Assembly (NCBI GenBank): GCA_000004985.1
Contig: GG738865.1
Direction: 5' to 3' (one strand)
DNA length: 64,000 bases
DNA from: Naegleria gruberi
Lineage: Eukaryota
Below are positions 12,787 to 38,061 of the stretch, in pieces (the first letter of the stretch is position 1; each line of letters begins with the position of its first letter). Position numbers and translations under genes: made by a program. A model generated the notes under the pieces. That model was not told the DNA's origin. It worked only from the letters and a program-made list of their open reading frames with translations, and searched no databases.

Positions 12787-13304
12787 TTTTATTGGTTCCT
12801 AACCGTTAACAATATATTTGATTTTAAAAAAATATTTTAAAAAATTATTAAAAACAGAACAAATACAAAGGTGAAGGGAGTAATAATTTTGTTGGTTTAA
12901 AATTGATGTGGATTTCCGATCTGAAAGGATGATATTGAGTACTTTATCATGCCTTCCTTTTCATGAAAATCTAATTAATATCTTCCCATGATTGAATTTG
13001 TTGAATGTTCATACTAGACCCTAACAAGTGTCAAATGGGAACGAGCAATGTTCTATTGATTGCTTGCTATTCGTAAAGCAGTAGAATTTTTATTCACCAA
13101 TTACAATTCAGCTCTTCCTTAAATTAGTCTTCCAATTATGGGTAAAGAAAATAAGTGTTTCCTTTGATATTAATTATTTTCTAGAAGAATTGAATTAATT
13201 TCTATTAGACATTACAAAATTGTGTAATTGATAACATTGGATTAAACCTTTCCTCTCAAAAATTGTAACAATTCCAAACTCTTCAAGAAACCAAGATTGA
13301 AAAA

Positions 13305-15976
13305 ATGTCTCTACAATTTGGCAGCACCTTGCTGTTTGCTGTTCTGATCATCTTTCTCACCTACTACAATCAATCTCGTTTGCCATCAAATTTACCAGTG
13401 CCAAACAGTATTGGTGCACCTGTTGATTATTTATTTAGAGAGGATCGAGCATTGAAAACTCTCGGCATTCTCTCCACTACTATCGGACCAAAAGTTGTTG
13501 GTACTCTGCAAGAGAAACAAGCTTTTGAATTTGTTAGAGATGAATTGAGTACGATTGTACATAGTGAATGGAAAATGAAATTGGAAAATTGTGATGAGAT
13601 GAATGTGAATGTTAATGGTCAGGATGAAGAGTTTGGATTAAAGAGGTTTATTAGAAAGGAGGGAAATATTAATAGTATGAAAATCAAGAGATGTCAACTT
13701 GTTGGGAATAATCATAAGATTACCCTTGATCAACAATTTATTTCTGGTATGTGTATTTATTTGGTTTGTGGTCAATTATAATTAATTGATCAGGTGATGG
13801 ATACATTGATATTTTGAAGAGAAAACTGTTTACTTCCTACCAAAATTTGACTAATTTAATTGTTAGAATTGATCCAAATCAAGATAGATCGGATAATCAT
13901 GGTTTATTGGTGTCAAGCCACTTTGACAGTGGTGTGTCTTCACCTGGATTCTATGATGATGGTATTCCTGTTGTTTGTATGATTGAATCATTTAGAAATA
14001 TTGTGAAAATGATTAGAGATGGAAAGTTAGAATTGAAAAGAAGTGTTATTTTCTTGTTTAATGGTGCTGAAGAAACTGGACTATTGGGAGCTGAATCATT
14101 CATGTATCATCCATATTCTAGGGATGTAAAATACTTTTTAAATTTAGAGGCTGCAGGATCTGGTGGAAAAGAGGTTGCTTTCCAAATAGCTACAGAATTC
14201 TTGGCTAGACATTTCGCCAAGTCAACAGTGAGGGCTAGTGGAAATGTCATAGCTCAAGATATTTTCCAATCAAATATTATTCCATCAGCAACTGATTATC
14301 ATGTATATTCTTCATTTGGAATGCAAGGAATTGATGTTTCATTCTACAAGAATGGTTATGTTTATCATACATCAAAGGATTCTTCATCTTCTTATGAAAA
14401 GGGATCTATTCAGCATATGGGTGATAATGTCCAATCATTTGTAACCCACTTCTCAAATATCACTGAAAATGACTCTGATCCAAAGACAAACTTTGTCTAT
14501 TTTGATCTTTTTGGATTCAATATGAATGTTTTTGACATCAATACTCTCAGACTGATTAACGTTTCAGTCATTGTAATATCTATTACTCTGTTAATTATTC
14601 CATTGATCAAAGGAGGTGCCGTAGCCTTGTACCATAGAGTGTTGGCCTTATTTTTAATATTCCTCTTTTTACTATTTGCTATTGGAATTAATATTACTTT
14701 AACAATTGGATTAATGAGATTGGGATACGATATGCTCTATTTTGCCTATCACCCAATGTTCTCTTTGGTTCTTTATGGATCAGTAGTAGTGACAACCTTC
14801 ACTCTTGGTTTTTGGACAACCAACAAGTTTATCATTGCCTTATCCACTGAAATCATGGCAGAATCAATTCTAATTCTCTACACTTGTATTTTGACACTTT
14901 TCACAATTTTCAACATTGCTTCTGGATATCTTTTCTTGGCTGTCACAATATTCTTATTATTGGGCACTTATTTCAACAAGGTTTACCTTGATTTTTCCTT
15001 GATAGGATTGGCATTTTTGAGTCCTATTTTGAACCAAGTTATTGACATGTTTATTCCAATTACTGGAAGACTTGGAAAGGCCGTTCAAGTTGATTATATT
15101 GCCCTTATGTTGTGTAGCATTGCTGTATTCTTAATATTGACAACATTGTTACCAGTTCTTGTTAGACAAATCTCTGGAAAAACTGTTTTACTATTAATTT
15201 TGGGAACTATCATCACCTATGCATATCTTATTTTGGGTAATAATGGCAAAGCATTTACCGAGGCACATCCAAAGAGAACTTCTATACAACATACCTTCTT
15301 AATGGCAAGTAATAATTTGAATGATTGGGAGCAGCTCTCTCAATATATTATGATTGCAGGAGCAGATTCATCTAAGGAGGAGGAAATAACTGATGTGTTG
15401 GGCAAGAGATTTAATTTTGAAAGAAGTCATGACACTTTAGAACCACAAGTTGTCAGAAGTGTAATTAATCCAAGAACTCACAAGAAGCCATATCTTATTA
15501 CCGAAACTACAGATAGTTTACCACGTTATATTACCCCTAAAATTTTCATTACAAACAAGGTCCATGAAAAAGGAAGAATTGAGTTTAGTATCCTCTTCCA
15601 TGAAAAGATTTATCATAGTGGAATATTCCTCTATTCAGATCATGAGATTGTAGAGTCATCATTCGATACCAATACATCATTCGGAAGAGTTGTTCAAACA
15701 AATACTGATTCTCAATATGAGTTTGAATATAACTTTTGGGCATTATTTGGATACAATAGAGATAGCTCTTTAATGAACCAAAATCAAAAATCTTTCAAGT
15801 TTTGGATTGAGTTCAAGCAAAATCCACAAAAAGATTTCAAATTGCGAGTTACACTCAAGAATACCTTCCTCGCAAATACATATTCTCTTGCAGAGTTGGA
15901 GACAGAGTTAGAGTCACTCCCTTGGTCTGAACATATTTCTACAACCCATTCTGTCATGGATTTCCAAATTAATTAG
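13305..15976 (+). CDS. ERMP1/FXNA-like endoplasmic-reticulum M28 metallopeptidase with a multi-pass membrane domain, in 2 exons.
   Basis: Model join(13305..13746, 13794..15976), 47-nt intron (GTATGT..CAG, phase 1). The protein reads ...TLDQQFISG|GDGYIDILKRKLFTSYQNLTNLIVRIDPNQDRSDNHGLLVSSHFDSGVSSPGFYDDGIPVVCMIESFRNIVKMI...VIFLFNGAEETGLLGAESFMYHPY..., the M28 zinc-ligand context (HFDS, DDG, NGAEE). At least 8 hydrophobic segments follow, as in ERMP1. Confidence 0.85.
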
Positions 15977-17424: not shown

Positions 17425-17984
17425 TGAGAGATTGAAAGTTGTTAATAAAGTGTTTTTCTTTATAAAAACTGTAACTGTTTTTGATACTGAACATTTCAAA
17501 ATGTTTAAAACACTCATTTTTGAATAAAGTCCAAAAAATATTTGATCATGATTTTCATTATCCATTACAATAAATCTGATTGTGAAATTTCTAATTTCAC
17601 ATTGGCAACTATCTTTTTAGATCTTAAAAATTCGCACAGTTTTCTAGAGTTGACTTTATTTGCAGTAGTTTTTCCAAAAAGTCGAAAATTTAAATGGCCG
17701 CAATTCCGTTGGTCAATTGGATAAATTGGGTAAAAAACAAGTCATTCAAAATCTTTGCAAATTATTCATCCATTCTCATAGATTCTATCAAGCTTGCTCA
17801 GAAAATTGTCGTAAAAAAAGTGTCAACAAATACCGCCGGGGCTGTTTTGTGCAAAAACCACAACACATCATTTCCTAATTGTTTCCAATTTTGATATTAG
17901 ACTTTAAAACCTACCACCATCAATAACATCAAAGAACCATCATATAAAGAAAACACTATATTGTTAATCAGATTGCTTATCAAT

Positions 17985-20488
17985 ATGTTGGTCAATTCGT
18001 CGTCTCCATCTTCGGTTCATCCACACAGTAAACTTTTAAATTCATCATCCTCTTCGAGTAATAATAATAACATGACGATTTCTAACAAATCTGCAGTGGC
18101 GAGTCAACCTGTATTCATTAATACTACTTCAACTTCATATTCTGCCTCCTATACGAATCTAAAACAACAACAATCGGCACCAATTTCAATGGCTAACACC
18201 ACAAATAATAATAGCAAACATATTACGAGACAATCCTCCACTCTAACTTCTTATTCATCCTCCAATAATATCAACAACAACAGCAACAATACAAAGATTA
18301 TCAATTCAAAGCCCGTTCTGCAGATCAACTCTACAAATTTTGGCGACAAACTCGCACATAATGTTATTCATCAAACAGAAACATTTAAAACAATACCCAA
18401 CAACACTAATTATTCCCAAATCAATCCAAAAACTCTTTATAGCACCGATTACAATATTCAGTCAACCAGTAACAGTCCACCACTGGCTAACAAGGCAGGC
18501 ACCTCCAAACACAGTAATATTCAAAGCTGTGTGCACCATCAACAACCAAACACTATTTCAAATACAGTGACAAACTCCACCGCACAAAATATCAATAATA
18601 TTAATAGACAAGTCAGGAGTACAAGTAATGGAAGTGATGTCCTTCCATTGAATCTTGGTGTTAACACAATGAGAACAAATAGCAGCAATGGTCAACATAT
18701 TAGGGGGCTTGCAATAAGTACTTCCTCACTAACAACAAACTCCTCAACCAAACTACCTCCTCTTTCCCTTCATCGATTGGAAAAATCTACCTCTGAGTCA
18801 TCATTGGAAAATTTACATAATCACCACCATCAACATGGTGCTGAACCAGCAACACCAAGAGTTGTTAATCTTGACAAGTATTTTAAATTTGCTCAACTAA
18901 TTATGGACGAGGAGGCATGTGAGGTTTTTCTTGAATTTTTGAGAAGGAAACGAAATGAAGAAAACTTGGAGTTTATTCTTCAAGTTTCTGCTCTTAAAAA
19001 GATTCCAACACTAAGTCATGGATATGCTATTGAAATTTTGCAAAGAATTCGTTCTGATTTTCTAACTAACGGCGCCAGTACGAACTGAATGTTAGCAAAC
19101 ATGTCAAATCACTCTCGATTGACAGGATTGATCGCTGTTTACAACAATCAATGCCATCAAGTCATTCTTCACTCAATTTTGCCAGTTCTCCTGTTGATTC
19201 TCTTATCCAATCCTCTTCGCCATCTACTGTTTCGACTCTAACTTATTCAACAACAGCCAATTCTGTGGACAACTCATACGATTCTCCAAGTTTAATATCC
19301 TCTTCCTTTTCCTCATTATCGTTGCTTCACAACTCATCACCAAGAGATCATTCAGAGTGTAGCTCCACATTCACAATGAGTGGAGAAATAATTCCACAAC
19401 AACCTATAACAACGAGTACCATATTGAAAGAGATCGAGTTGGAGGTTAGACTCCAGTTACAGAATGAGTCTTTCAAGGAATTTAAAGCAAGTGACGAGTT
19501 TGAACACTTTTTATTGACAAAAGTGATTGAACAGAGTCAGAATAATAACCCTGTGAATGATCAATCCCCACACAACTCTCCTCATCAATCTGAGACTGTA
19601 AGCTCTTCTAGATCAGACAAGTCTAACTCTTCTATTGGTTCTCCACAGTCCAGTAATTTCTTCTCCAAGATTTTCAAGAAGAAATCTACAACAAGCACTG
19701 CTGTTCAAGAACCAAAATCTGATGAATCAATTACAGATGATGAAACGTCAGTTGGAAGTGGTGAATCAGAATATATTTACAATCCTCAGAATCCTAATGA
19801 TATCACCTTTGTGGAAAATCTTCAGATCAGAAAGTGGAGTAATCAACAAGTGATCAACTTTTTCAAATTCAAGTTGGATCTACCAGAATATACTGATGCT
19901 TTGAAAAAGAATGAAATCAAAGGAATTGATCTTAGCTTATTGAAAAAGGAAGATACTCCAGATCAAGCAGCAGATAAGATTGATACTTCTGATCTTCAAA
20001 AGAAGGTCGATGCACTCTACAAGAAGATAAAGATGGTTAAACTTGGACACAAGAAAAAGCTTCAAAGAGAAGTCAATGAAGCAATAATTGCCTATCAGAA
20101 AAAGCAACAAAAATCCAACAAGATTTCATCTCTTGAACGTCCAAGAAAAGTTTCTGATTCTATTCTTCCAAAATCACAAATCTCCACATCAATGGACGCT
20201 GACTTGACTACGATCATTATCAAGTTGTGGATTCTGCCAATGGATCAGAAACGAGTTTTCACTGTCAAACGTTGTATCAAGCTTGATCGTTTAAAAACAA
20301 TCATTCTCAAGGAAGTTAGTGATATTGTAGAGAAAAAGTTTCCATCTGAAAATCCAACACTTTTAATGAATAATCGAGTCATTAAAACCTCAAAAGGTGA
20401 CTCTCTCACTTCTAATGAAAAACTTTACCAATACCTATGCTCAGAATCTACCAGCAGTCAATTTGTTACTCTAAAGATTGAATTTTAA
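17985..20488 (+). CDS. RGS-domain / SAM-domain signalling protein with a long S/T/N-rich N-terminus. The reading frame is broken by a -1 frameshift at about 19079-19082, so this is either an assembly error or a pseudogene.
   Basis: The track gives 17961..19088 (TTG start; first ATG at 17985) and 19151..20488. The first ORF ends ACEVFLEFLRRKRNEENLEFILQVSALKKIPTLSHGYAIEILQRIRSDFLTNGAST, the RGS N-terminal half (FL.SEFSEENLEFW consensus). The RGS continues in frame 2 directly after it as ELNVSKHVKSLSIDRIDRCLQQ. No GT..AG intron fits. Downstream lie a SAM domain (WSNQQVINFFKFKLDLPEYTDALKKNEIKGIDLSLLKKED) and a ubiquitin/RA-like C-terminus. Confidence 0.6.
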
Positions 20489-20576
20489 ATCATAATAAAT
20501 TAAACAATTTATTTTGAATTTTCCAAATTTAGTGCCAACAATTTAATTAAAATTTTCTAAATCTAATGAATTTCTC

Positions 20577-21824
20577 TTAATTCCCCTTGATGAAATTCCG
20601 AGTGGTAGATTTGGCAGCAATTATTGTCTTTGTTTTTAGGGTGAAATTATCTGGTCGATAGGCAAGGAACGCATGTCTAAGATCTATGAGATTTTCACTA
20701 GGAGAAATAATAGGTTGACCTTCAAGTTTGATATCTGGAAATGTGAATTGACATTCCACATTATATGACTCATCATTATCTTCTTCAGATGGTTTTGATT
20801 TTAATTTTAGGATGCCAGACACAATAATAGATGAAGTGTTGAGCGGAATATTATTCACTTTGCATTCTCCCTTATCTATGGATGTTTGAGATATTTCCTG
20901 ATTGTTTGAATCAAGGAATTTGAATGAAACATTCTTAAACCATGATGAAATTCTATTTCCATTCTTTTCTGATCTGAATTGGCAATCAAACGAAAGCTCT
21001 TCTTGTTGTTTTTGAATAGAGAGCAGATAAGATTTTGAGGCAACATAGGTCGGTATCTGATATCCTAATCCATTCATTAACCTCTCCATAAATTCATCTG
21101 TTTTCATATTGATTTTCACATCTGCATAAATATCCTTTGGTGTGGTTTGTAAATTTACAATTATTAATTTTCCCTTATGTCCGTAAGTGTTGAATTTACA
21201 CAATTGTGGCAAATCGCAAATTGGCAATACCTTCAAGCTAGTTCCAAGAACAATTGCCACATCTGCCAATTTCGAATGTTCCAAAGCCCTTTCGAACCAC
21301 TTCTGATCCAGTGGATCGTTAAAATTGACAATAGTATCAAACAATTCCTTTCCACACTTATTGCAAAATCTTCCAGTTGTATGCTCATGCACTTCCTTAT
21401 TATTTCTAACTGAATAATCTCTAACATATTCAATTTCACATTCTTTACAAATTTCAATATTTGTATTTCCATGAATTTCACTCATACAATCTCTTGAAAT
21501 TCCAGATTCCAAATGAAGTCCATCAACATTTTGTGAAGTGAGATATTTCAACTTTTTTTGTTTGTACAATTCTGATATTGCCATGTGACATTTTGTTGGA
21601 AACTTGATGAAAGGAACAGATTTGACTGGTTCCTTCCCTTGCTTCAACATGGTCCAAATTCCCTTCGGACCTCTATAATCAATTATACCACTCTCCGTAG
21701 AAATACCAGCCCCCGTATAAATAACCAAATGTTTAGAATCCTTCACATAGTCAATGACCCATTTGATCTTTTCTTCAATCTCCTCGGCAGAGTCAAAATA
21801 TTCAGTACAATCTTCTTGTTCCAT
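20577..21824 (-). CDS. NAD-dependent protein deacylase of the Sir2 family, class IV (SIRT6/SIRT7-like), with a C-terminal extension.
   Basis: ATG at 21824. The protein has KHLVIYTGAGISTESGIIDYRGPKGIWT (Rossmann GAGIS..G.PDFR motif), TQNVDGLHLESGI, the zinc ribbon CKECEIEY...CNKCG, and LIIVNLQTTPKD. The GAGISTESGIIDYRGPKGIWTM and LIIVNLQTTPKD motifs point to class IV rather than class I. Confidence 0.85.
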   Translation of the reverse strand: MEQEDCTEYFDSAEEIEEKIKWVIDYVKDSKHLVIYTGAGISTESGIIDYRGPKGIWTMLKQGKEPVKSVPFIKFPTKCHMAISELYKQKKLKYLTSQNVDGLHLESGISRDCMSEIHGNTNIEICKECEIEYVRDYSVRNNKEVHEHTTGRFCNKCGKELFDTIVNFNDPLDQKWFERALEHSKLADVAIVLGTSLKVLPICDLPQLCKFNTYGHKGKLIIVNLQTTPKDIYADVKINMKTDEFMERLMNGLGYQIPTYVASKSYLLSIQKQQEELSFDCQFRSEKNGNRISSWFKNVSFKFLDSNNQEISQTSIDKGECKVNNIPLNTSSIIVSGILKLKSKPSEEDNDESYNVECQFTFPDIKLEGQPIISPSENLIDLRHAFLAYRPDNFTLKTKTIIAAKSTTRNFIKGN

Positions 21825-34045: not shown

Positions 34046-35492
34046 TTATTCACCTTCAGGATCGACCACTTCCTCACTTGCAGCAGATTCTTCACCATCC
34101 TGTTCAGTGCCGTTAGAGAGACTTTGTTTTCTCTCTTCCAAATTCTGCTCTTCAATTTGTTTTCTTTTGGCTTCTTCTCTTTTCCTTAATTCACGTCTTC
34201 TCCTCTCCATTTCTTTTGATTCGGCATCGACAATGTCTGTAAACTTTTCTCGATACTCTGTAATTTGCTTAATCTTTAAATTATAAAATGAGAAACATTG
34301 CTTGAATAGTATGGAGTGATCGTACAGTCTTCTAGTACTGTGATTCAAATAGTGCAATACTTCTCCCATGTGTAATCTTTGTTCAAGTGCAGTGTCATGC
34401 AATTTGAGATATGACATTGCTACTCTGAAAAGTATTTTTGTTCCTTCACTGAAAACTAAATCTAAAACTCTCATCGATGTCTCAATAGGGAAAACCTCAA
34501 TAAATAATCTCATGAACCATCCACTGGCAAATGCCGTTGTCTCTACTCCAAATTTATGTAAATGAGCATGAAGTTTTGGTAATCTTTCCTTGATTAGTTC
34601 GTCCAAAACATAAGAATCCACTCTCATACCAGTAAGTTCTGGATTATAATAATTTGCTGGTAAAATGTCTTCGAGTAAGGTTACTAAGAGCCAAAAAGCT
34701 TCTTCCTCTCCACAGTGCAATAATAAACTTCCGACAATATAGTTCAAACTCTGGCAATAGCTTACGTAAGGGTTTCTCCAACTGAATGCTGTCAATACAT
34801 TCTTCATTTGTGATCTTCCTATTGAGTGACTATTACAGAAAAATGGATGTGAAGGGAAAGTTCTACACAAATCCAAGTCTATCTGAGCTTCATTCGGACA
34901 TGTTTGACCCTTGTGAACTGTTTGATTTAAATTAAAAAGAACTTTAAATATTTACCTTCGAGAATCTTCTTGTAATATCCTCTGTTTTCCTTCATTTTCT
35001 TATCCACTCCCGTTATTTGAATCCAAACATGTCTTCTATACCAAGATGGAATTGAATGTTTTCTTACCAGTGCCTTGACTGTTTTCCTTGCAGAGTCCGA
35101 TTTTAACAATTTTCCTTGAATTCCACCACATTCATCAATATAATGTTTCCACGCTTTTGAACTTTCTTCATAGACTTTTTCTCTTTTTGATTTAATCCAT
35201 TGTGTATAGGCTTGATAAACTTCAGGATCATCATTTGATTGAGGTTCAGGAAATCCATAATTTACAATTGAACACCACTGATAATTAATTTGTAATTCAT
35301 CGGTGTCGTTCAACAATTTTAATCCATCCTCATGAATAGTATCATCTAAAAAGTTTCATCAAAAAAAGTAGATTTATCACCCCCGTCATCATTTTAATAT
35401 TTCATCAAACAAATATATAAAAACATACGATCTTCCTCTTCGGTTAGGTTATGATTGATAGGCCCTTTTGATTTGAATGGATTGAGAGGCAT
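34046..35492 (-). CDS. TBC-domain Rab GTPase-activating protein, in 3 exons.
   Basis: Model complement(join(34046..34917, 34956..35345, 35429..35492)), introns 38 and 83 nt, both phase 1, about 441 aa. The Arg-finger region IPSWYRRHVWIQITG (IxxDxxR type), LDLCRTFPSHPFF (RTFP motif) and the Gln-finger YVSYCQSLNYIVGSLLL (YxQ motif) are all present. The track ORF 34927..35316 begins at a TTG, not the true start. Confidence 0.8.
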
Positions 35493-35832: not shown

Positions 35833-36924
35833 CTAAAAATCCTTAATTCCCTTCTCATTGCTGCCGTCACCATTCCTCAGATACATCATGACTGCAACAA
35901 ACAAAAGAATATTATGAGCATGTTTAACATCCACACAATTAATTTCCAAATACAAACTTCCATTACTTTTAAAAGCAATTAATTGAGCTCTCTTTCTTTG
36001 AATAATTCGTTCATAATCTGGAACTAGATCCGTTTTGTTTCCAATTAGTATACTTTCCACCTTTTCAGTTCCTTTGATATCATTAATATCATTCTCGGCT
36101 CTATCCAATGATTCTAAACGATTCAAATCAAACATTATCAAAGCAGTATTTGCATTCCTCTTGTATAAAGATGTATAAAAATAAGCAGGTTGATCCCATA
36201 ATTGCAAATCTCTAAGGATACCATCCCAAAGTTTGTAAATTTTGAATGTGTGTGCTGATGACACTACTCCAGGAGTGTAATCTCCAATTGATAAACTGTC
36301 AAGAGAGCTTTTCACAAAGCTCGTTTTTCCTACATGATGGTCACCCGTCATGATACATTTGAAAATTTTCTTATTGAACTCTAGGTTGTTTGAGGTGGAT
36401 ACAGAACTAGTGCTGGATGATAATAATCTCGACGAAAAATAAGAAAATAAATTGAATAAACTATTGGGAGATTCCTTTTTTGGTTCATCTTTTGGTTGTT
36501 CAATTTTTTTTGAAAGTATGTCAAAATAATATTCCACCAATTTCATTTCATCAAGAAACCAATTGGTTCTCTTTGGTTCGAATTTTTCCCATTCAAATCT
36601 TTGTCTTTCCCTTTTTTTAAATTCACTTCCTTCAAGAAATTCCACACATAATCCATAAATATGTTCCCTTAGCTTTAATTTTAGAAAATGGGTGAATAAT
36701 TTGTGTTCATTACAACTTTGAATATCTAACGAAGAATAGTTAATATTAGATAAAAATTCTGTAAATTGTTTGTAAATCTCCCGAAACGATAATTCTCTCC
36801 AGGATTCACAAACTCTTCCAATAGTGAAATATTGTTCTGGAATTGAAAAGAAATGATAAATCTCCAACAATAATTCTTCGGGAAGATTATTGATCGTGGC
36901 AACAATTTGTTGATTTTCTTTCAT
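35833..36924 (-). CDS. F-box-like N-terminal domain fused to a divergent Rab/Ras-like small GTPase domain.
   Basis: First ATG at 36924; the track start 36954 is TTG. The N-terminus NLPEELLLEIYHFFSIPEQYFTIGRVCESWRELSF fits the F-box pattern. The C-terminal half has the P-loop KCIMTGDHHVGKTSFV (GxxxxGK[ST]), a switch II-like LWDQPAYF and the guanine-specificity motif LIGNKTDL (NKxD). Confidence 0.65.
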   Translation of the reverse strand: MKENQQIVATINNLPEELLLEIYHFFSIPEQYFTIGRVCESWRELSFREIYKQFTEFLSNINYSSLDIQSCNEHKLFTHFLKLKLREHIYGLCVEFLEGSEFKKRERQRFEWEKFEPKRTNWFLDEMKLVEYYFDILSKKIEQPKDEPKKESPNSLFNLFSYFSSRLLSSSTSSVSTSNNLEFNKKIFKCIMTGDHHVGKTSFVKSSLDSLSIGDYTPGVVSSAHTFKIYKLWDGILRDLQLWDQPAYFYTSLYKRNANTALIMFDLNRLESLDRAENDINDIKGTEKVESILIGNKTDLVPDYERIIQRKRAQLIAFKSNGSLYLEINCVDVKHAHNILLFVAVMMYLRNGDGSNEKGIKDF

Positions 36925-36994
36925 TTTTCTTTCTTCAAAAAAAGCCAATTTCAAATTACAAAATTTGAGAATAATTTTATTGAAATAACAGAGT

Positions 36995-38061
36995 TTAGAA
37001 AATGAATGGAACGAGGACCTTTCTGTTCTTTGGATAGAGTTCTCTACCGTCCTTACCGTCGAACAACTTCTTCAAAGCAACGTGCTTCTTAATAGCCCAT
37101 GGAAGCATTTGACCAGCACCACTGAGAGTGTACAAGAAACATGGGAGAGATTGAATCATGATTGAGAAGAAAATCCATTCCAAAATTTCAAAAGTATAAT
37201 TTGGACAAGTGACGTATTCAAAGAGGAATCCTCTTGGGATCTTTCTACCCTTTTCACCTGGCTTTCTCAAATTCTTCAAGATAATGTGACAAACAAAGTT
37301 ACCAAGCATGGACAAAACAACACCAGCAGCACCAATGTAAACTTGGAGATCAGATGGTGATTGATACTTTGGATGGATAGTAAAGTGAGCAACAAGATAA
37401 GCATAACCCCAATAATAAATACTATTCTTGAAAATGTTGAAAATTGGCATGGTATCAGTACCGAAAACGTGAACAAAGAGAGTTTCAAATTCTCTCTTGA
37501 TAAAGTGAGCCATGAAGAGAACAGTGGCGATCCTATTATTATTGTGTGATGGTGATGATGATCAGTTATTATCAATAAATTTCACATAATTATTAACAAA
37601 ATCAAAATTATTTAACACAATCATGATGTCATCATTAAAAATCACCATTAATTCAATATCATCATCGGATCAAATATAAAAACATACATTTGAGTATTGT
37701 TCAATTGAACAGGTTCTCCGTGAATGTAAGGAGCCAAAAAGTAGGCAAGTGGGAAAGTCAAGATTGGACCAAAATATTCAGTCAAAAAGACGGTTCTCCA
37801 AGCAATTTGAGGACCCAAATCCTTGAACATGACAACAGATCCGTCCTTCAAATCAGCAACAGGTCCATTATTTTCAGCAGCAACGATCATCTTTCCTCTT
37901 TGACCAGTAGTAGCATCCACATAGTAAAAAGCTTGTCTACTTGGATCAACTCTCTTTTGTTGATGATAGGCCTTCTTCAAATCAGTCAAGCTTGGTGCTT
38001 GCAAATCCAACTCGGCCAATTGCTTCTTGCCGGTTCTTGCATCAACGACGGAAATTTTCAT
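36995..38061 (-). CDS. Very-long-chain enoyl-CoA reductase (TECR/Tsc13, steroid 5-alpha-reductase family) with an N-terminal ubiquitin-like domain, in 2 exons.
   Basis: Model complement(join(36995..37532, 37688..38061)) with a 155-nt intron (GTATGT..TAG, phase 2), 303 aa. An N-terminal UBL (MKISVVDARTGKKQLAELDL...) precedes the C-terminal 3-oxo-5-alpha-steroid 4-dehydrogenase domain (...FMAHFIKREFETLFVHVFGTDTMPIFNIFKNSIYYWGY...EYVTCPNYTFEILEWI...). Confidence 0.85.

Follow-up and report, generated by a model that had tools for sequence, protein, structure and literature searches.

Genes that appear as two open reading frames in a genome assembly have several described counterparts. In split gene models of draft assemblies, two neighbouring 'predicted proteins' lie on one strand, one base out of frame with each other; taken together they rebuild a single domain and match a single orthologue, the downstream frame is fully preserved, and signals for recoding are lacking. 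Consensus indels are an occasional feature of unfinished Sanger drafts at approximately 8x coverage. A recent strain-specific frameshift null allele lacks one base that an intact allele of the species has, and is free of secondary decay. Programmed -1 frameshift sites, such as those of viral gag-pol, have a downstream ORF in the -1 frame that overlaps the upstream ORF. All of these properties are shared by the locus of Naegleria gruberi reported here, which encodes a protein with a regulator of G-protein signalling (RGS) domain. In the related N. fowleri, 79 RGS-domain proteins have been reported besides the 7TM-RGS class (PMC9283941); that paper covers the G-alpha and RGS system of the species and does not mention the RGS-SAM protein described below.

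The analysis was carried out on a window of 64,000 nucleotides from contig GG738865.1 of the N. gruberi assembly GCA_000004985.1, and all positions refer to this window and to its plus strand unless stated otherwise. The region 17985..20488 is one intron-less gene for a protein of approximately 834 amino acids and about 92 kDa, with a one-base deletion in the reference, and the encoded protein carries, in this order, RGS and SAM domains, a helical segment and a beta-grasp domain at the C-terminus (Table 1). The public record for strain NEG-M splits the gene, on a scaffold of 820 kb, into two proteins, EFC44968.1 and EFC44969.1, both titled 'predicted protein'. An exact look-up identified the upstream ORF as NAEGRDRAFT_79571 / EFC44968.1 / D2VDV4 (367 aa; 17985..19085 without the stop), and a protein search with the joined sequence returned, as a 100% identical match, the 370-aa 'predicted protein' of N. 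gruberi.

Table 1. Features of the RGS-SAM gene and of its frame junction (positions in the window)
Feature	Position	Strand	Basis or remark
Upstream ORF, 367 aa + TGA	17985..19088	+	Low-complexity N-terminus and first half of RGS domain
RGS domain, N-terminal half	18879..19076	+	YFKFAQLIMDEEACEVFLEFL...SDFLTNGA, upstream frame; Pfam; aligned to RGS6 structure 2es0_A
Dual-open stretch	19070..19085	+	Between TAA 19067-19069 (downstream frame) and TGA 19086-19088 (upstream frame)
Missing-base site	19077..19078	+	L001 GCC ATG TAC GAA vs window GCC A-G TAC GAA; placement unambiguous
RGS domain, middle part	19082..19147	+	ELNVSKHVKSLSIDRIDRCLQQ, -1 frame; E-L-N invariant in all orthologues
Ser/Thr-rich low-complexity insert in RGS domain, 91 aa	19148..19420	+	Orthologue alignment
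NAEGRDRAFT_67055 / EFC44969.1 / D2VDV5, 370 aa	19376..20488	+	3' part of downstream frame only
RGS domain, putative C-terminal helices	19421..19537	+	ILKEIELEVRLQLQNESFKEFKASDEFEHFLLTKVIEQS; most conserved block of family
SAM domain	19802..19951	+	Pfam SAM_2 and SAM_1; helices in AF2 model
Long conserved helical segment	19994..20116	+	Invariant KMxKLGHKKKLxR motif; orthologue alignment and AF2 model
C-terminal beta-grasp (ubiquitin-like / Ras-binding-domain-like) domain and stop codon	20207..20488	+	AF2, Foldseek

In the window translation, the upstream ORF reads ...ACEVFLEFLRRKRNEENLEFILQVSALKK...SDFLTNGASTN before its stop codon and terminates as ...RIRSDFLTNGASTN-TGA, while the -1 frame, read from the TAA at 19067-19069 onwards, begins with RRQYELNVSKHVKSLSIDRIDRCLQQ... 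and stays open until the TAA at 20486-20488. The latter frame thus runs for 469-472 codons (19070..20485) without a stop in a genome of approximately 34% G+C. Since the two frames are both open only in the short stretch bounded by these TAA and TGA codons, the frame change must fall there, which agrees with an earlier sequence-only reading of the window that had placed the shift within 19060-19100. The same reading had assigned the first half of an RGS domain to the ORF ending at 19088 and the remainder to the other frame, and the Pfam RGS model (PF00615; cut-off 23.9 bits) bears this out, the score rising from 24.1 bits for the upstream ORF alone (model positions 1-62) to 38.9 bits for the joined frames (model positions 2-85 of 117). 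The split is well above what chance would give. The match ends at model position 85 because the 91-aa low-complexity insert interrupts the domain; this insert is of variable length, with Willaertia lacking it and N. fowleri and N. lovaniensis carrying a much longer version. The block beyond it, ...NESFKEFKASDEFEHFLL, is similar to the final helices of an RGS domain, the stretch being below significance against human RGS6 (2es0_A).

An intact allele, designated L001, was available on a 2,873-bp environmental contig of the ENA metagenome assembly ERZ929261 (run ERR1078381, project PRJEB11402; a literature search with the project accession gave no match). The contig aligns end to end with window positions 17718..20604 at 97.8% identity over 2.9 kb. 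Within the coding sequence, the two differ by 17 substitutions, three in-frame indels of 3, 3 and 21 nt that all lie in the low-complexity N-terminus, and one frame-breaking indel, which is an extra T in L001 between A19077 and G19078 of the window. The junction sequence is GCCAGTACG without this T and GCCATGTACG with it, and addition of the T to the N. gruberi sequence yields an 834-aa protein in which ...NGA-MYELNV... takes the place of ...NGASTN-stop. The 829-aa protein encoded by L001, which is the third member of the same 90% cluster, is read in one uninterrupted frame as ...SDFLTNGAMYELNVSKHVKSLSIDRIDRCLQQ.... The sequence-only reading had let the second half of the domain continue without a gap in the -1 frame from about 19082; the gap-free continuation stands, but the position was approximately 4 nt off. 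About 1% of the aligned bases differ between L001 and the window, so that L001 comes from a different allele or strain and gives no information on the NEG-M allele itself.

In the flanks of the same alignment, the 267 nt 5' of the start codon (17718..17984) are identical between the window and L001, which is only weakly unusual given a mean divergence of about 1%. The 3' intergenic region (20489..20604), shared with a convergent Sir2-family gene on the minus strand (20577..21824), has dense indels and substitutions at 20517-20568.

[quoted passage not shown] The corrected 834-aa protein is collinear with these four and gap-free at the junction, where every sequence has exactly three residues (AMY, SNH, AVS, AVS and GAH) between an invariant G363 and an invariant E367-L368-N369, and in L001 and all four orthologues the protein is encoded in a single continuous frame. 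An alignment to orthologues had been proposed by the sequence-only reading as the check on whether one inserted base gives a continuous RGS domain, and this is the outcome; its expectation of dictyostelid orthologues was mistaken, the gene being heterolobosean (Naegleria gruberi) with relatives in Naegleria and Willaertia. When the C-terminal 247 aa (19745..20485) were searched exhaustively with HMMER against 1.84 billion representative proteins, only five proteins came back, namely the N. gruberi fragment and its Naegleria, Willaertia and environmental relatives (the last being L002, ERZ27315067), and we conclude from these five matches that the RGS-SAM-beta-grasp family is single-copy and confined to Heterolobosea.

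The junction stretch also aligns without gaps to human RGS6 (2es0_A), with FLTNGAMYELNVSKH against FLAPGAPSAINLDSH. N369 of the ELN motif, which is invariant in six of six sequences, pairs in this alignment with the Asn of RGS6 'AINLD', and we take its counterpart to be Asn128 of RGS4, in the alpha5-alpha6 loop that contacts switch I of G-alpha. Judged from the sequence, N369 lies four codons past the frameshift, so that neither annotated fragment would hold a complete domain or be expected to work as a GTPase-activating protein (GAP).

One might suppose that the DNA is correct as deposited and that a single protein is nevertheless made from it, by programmed -1 frameshifting, transcriptional slippage or insertional RNA editing at 19070-19085. 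The only point that speaks for such recoding is that the required shift is -1 with both frames open and conserved. Against it, no slippery heptamer of the form X XXY YYZ occurs in frame at 18985-19088 or in any frame at 19040-19088, no homopolymer of four or more bases was found in the overlap, and the 119 nt downstream (19082-19200) fold at -19.6 kcal/mol, no better than shuffled sequence (mean -19.4 kcal/mol, z = -0.06), so that a stimulatory RNA structure was not detected there. The overlap is of 16 nt only, unlike in programmed -1 sites, and the frameshift architecture is not conserved in relatives: the sister allele L001 and four of the four orthologues are single-frame, which argues that recoding is not the ancestral reading mode of the gene. 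We know of no nuclear insertional editing in Heterolobosea. A programmed frameshift was thus rejected for want of both heptamer and structure, as the sequence-only reading had anticipated in calling it very unlikely, and recoding in any of its forms is in our estimation highly improbable.

Equally improbable, in our view, is that the ORFs are joined by splicing or that they are two true separate genes as annotated. As many as 97 GT..AG pairs formally reopen the frame, and GenBank does have two gene models. All frame-restoring pairs were enumerated, and none deletes fewer than 31 conserved codons: the shortest of them, 18984..19078 with 95 nt, cuts 31 codons of the conserved RGS core and the others cut more, which upholds the sequence-only claim that no GT..AG intron can sit at the junction, and an intron was accordingly rejected. 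In L001 as in every orthologue, the stretch 18984..19078 is collinear coding sequence, the junction contains nothing that resembles the intron of the window at 34955..34918, and an RGS half is not known as a fold of its own.

That intron came from a rough search of the window for further neighbouring open segments of some length that lie in different frames, made to gauge the rate of indel errors, in which Pfam was run on all eight other pairs; among these eight, a domain was split across two segments in the RabGAP-TBC pair only. On inspection of the sequence, the RabGAP-TBC gene (34049..35355, minus strand) is divided over two frames by a probable intron at 34918..34955, which is AT-rich, 38 nt long and in phase 1, with GTAAAT..ACAG ends, and across which the protein reads ...KKILE|VHKGQTCPNEAQIDLDLCRTFP. 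The pair formed by a steroid dehydrogenase and an F-box-Ras protein is clearly two separate genes. In the ORF at 35836..37071 (minus strand), an F-box at residues 60-102 is joined to a small GTPase domain of the Ras/Roc type at residues 238-387, an unusual pairing. In 13269..15976 (plus strand), a Peptidase_M28 gene occupies the open segment 13790..15976, and a 170-codon open segment that lies 9 nt upstream in another frame had no Pfam match.

Selection on the gene was assessed by Nei-Gojobori counts between the corrected CDS of the window and L001. Over the whole CDS, there are 14 synonymous and 3 non-synonymous differences (pS 0.026, pN 0.0015, pN/pS 0.059; P under neutrality 2e-7); the part of the CDS that follows the shift has 4 and 1 (pS 0.0134, pN 0.0009, pN/pS 0.067; P under neutrality 0.008). 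No second disabling lesion was found across the 834 codons. A decayed pseudogene would have relaxed constraint or multiple lesions, whereas this gene has one lesion and the low overall ratio given above; the relaxation normally seen in a true pseudogene is not visible here. With a pN/pS of about 0.06 and a single lesion, purifying selection must have acted for essentially the whole separation time of the two alleles, and such selection without decay implies that the deletion is either absent from the organism altogether or extremely recent. The sequence-only reading had offered just these two options, a missing base or a very recent disablement, and both the extra T of L001 and the almost exclusively synonymous substitutions on either side of the shift are in keeping with it.

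The first option, that one base was dropped from the consensus of the Sanger draft of 2010 and that the deletion arose in sequencing or assembly, not in the organism, is the one that we favour, with about even confidence, on account of the unfinished state of the Sanger draft, the conservation of a single-copy gene and the total lack of decay. On this account, the consensus would omit one T between 19077 and 19078, the omission would turn ...NGA-MYELNV... into ...NGASTN-stop, the resulting frame break would lead annotators to call two 'predicted proteins', and the actual NEG-M gene would be intact, with nothing biological at the junction. What stands against a consensus error is the site itself, which lies outside any homopolymer and is not a classic error context; in this, it is unlike typical split gene models of draft assemblies, which it resembles in the consensus sequence. 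A further count against an error is that the corrected NEG-M protein has no entry among 15 billion collected proteins.

The second option is that NEG-M really carries the one-base deletion and with it an RGS-SAM allele that lost its function very recently, which we hold to be a serious possibility, if somewhat short of an even chance. The allele would either be heterozygous, a collapsed assembly having taken the broken haplotype, or have become fixed during decades of clonal axenic culture, and its product would be a fragment of 367 aa with half an RGS domain and, as predicted, without GAP activity. The deletion is, after all, present in the deposited sequence, on which the two gene models rest, and no obvious error context surrounds it. 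An undecayed downstream part is what would be expected of a lesion that is very young, or heterozygous and covered by an intact copy; a statement in PMC9928731, citing Fritz-Laylin 2010, describes N. gruberi as heterozygous and diploid. The gene is, on the other side, single-copy and conserved throughout the genus and in Willaertia, its selective constraint and its otherwise undamaged 834 codons require that any inactivation be extremely recent, and an error in the draft consensus accounts for the same data without the loss of a conserved gene.

Axenic strains of Dictyostelium have lost the RasGAP NF1 (axeB). By analogy, a deletion that is real and fixed in axenic NEG-M and absent from wild N. 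gruberi may be conceived of as a laboratory-acquired knockout of a conserved putative G-alpha GAP that contributed to axenic adaptation or was tolerated through it; we consider this very improbable.

Searches for further copies of the locus were negative within their respective scopes. The corrected 834-aa NEG-M protein had no match in a collection of 15 billion proteins, and exact-protein look-ups in a gene-position index (the 445-, 370- and 367-aa products and two neighbouring genes) returned no contigs. JGI metagenome contigs were scanned for the junction, with and without the extra base, and for a conserved 32-mer 370 nt downstream, and gave no match to either. According to PMC9928731, no N. 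gruberi genome other than that of NEG-M was available by 2023, and public EM-seq, WGBS, Nanopore and RNA-seq data exist for this strain (PMC12344493 and others).

The part of the gene downstream of the junction is intact, as the sequence-only reading had described it, with the -1 frame open to 20488 and its SAM domain detected by both SAM_2 (PF07647; 27.4 bits, cut-off 20.5) and SAM_1 (PF00536; 25.4 bits, cut-off 23), the Pfam match being confined to model positions 4-43 of 66. The AlphaFold2 (AF2) model shows helices in this region, with pLDDT values of 63-78. The tail, which had been called UBL/RA-like, is modelled with a pLDDT of approximately 90 over model residues 155-247, and its predicted elements are the strands E156-164 and E168-175, the helix H180-198, the strand E213-215, the helix H224-234 and the strand E240-246. 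In a Foldseek comparison with the PDB, the best match was a bacterial Ubl (8tyx_A; E = 9e-4, target TM 0.66), followed by the PI3K-alpha Ras-binding domain (RBD), PB1 domains and ubiquitin. The predicted model thus supports a beta-grasp fold for the C-terminal domain at the level of the fold, without a subfamily assignment, and the earlier description of the tail is upheld at that level.

The domain composition loosely parallels that of RGS12 and RGS14, the R12 subfamily of animals, which likewise have an RGS domain with the conserved G-alpha-contact Asn together with beta-grasp domains, the best fold matches of the N. gruberi domain including the Ras-binding domain of PI3K-alpha. Unlike in RGS12/RGS14, a SAM domain and a long helix stand between the RGS and the beta-grasp domain, there is one beta-grasp domain instead of two, and a GoLoco motif is lacking; the architecture is found in Heterolobosea only, sequence homology is not detectable outside the RGS domain, and Ras binding is for the N. 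gruberi protein a prediction by analogy. From this composition, we infer a putative G-alpha GAP that would be scaffolded by the SAM domain, through oligomerisation, and by the beta-grasp domain, the latter being possibly a small-GTPase-binding or ubiquitin-like-binding module.

That a single gene is broken into two database entries by a one-base indel is ordinary and, whichever of the two causes applies, not biologically surprising. The significance is mainly curatorial: GenBank, UniProt and EukProt have two fragments where one protein of approximately 834 aa belongs, and pangenome or orthology studies based on the NEG-M proteome will miscount the RGS-SAM gene. The RGS-SAM-beta-grasp family is itself a small addition to the very large RGS repertoire of Naegleria, which comprises at least 79 members in N. 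fowleri (PMC9283941). If the deletion is true in NEG-M, the standard laboratory strain would be a natural null or a heterozygote for a conserved regulator of G-protein signalling, which would be relevant to work on Naegleria signalling, motility and differentiation that uses NEG-M.
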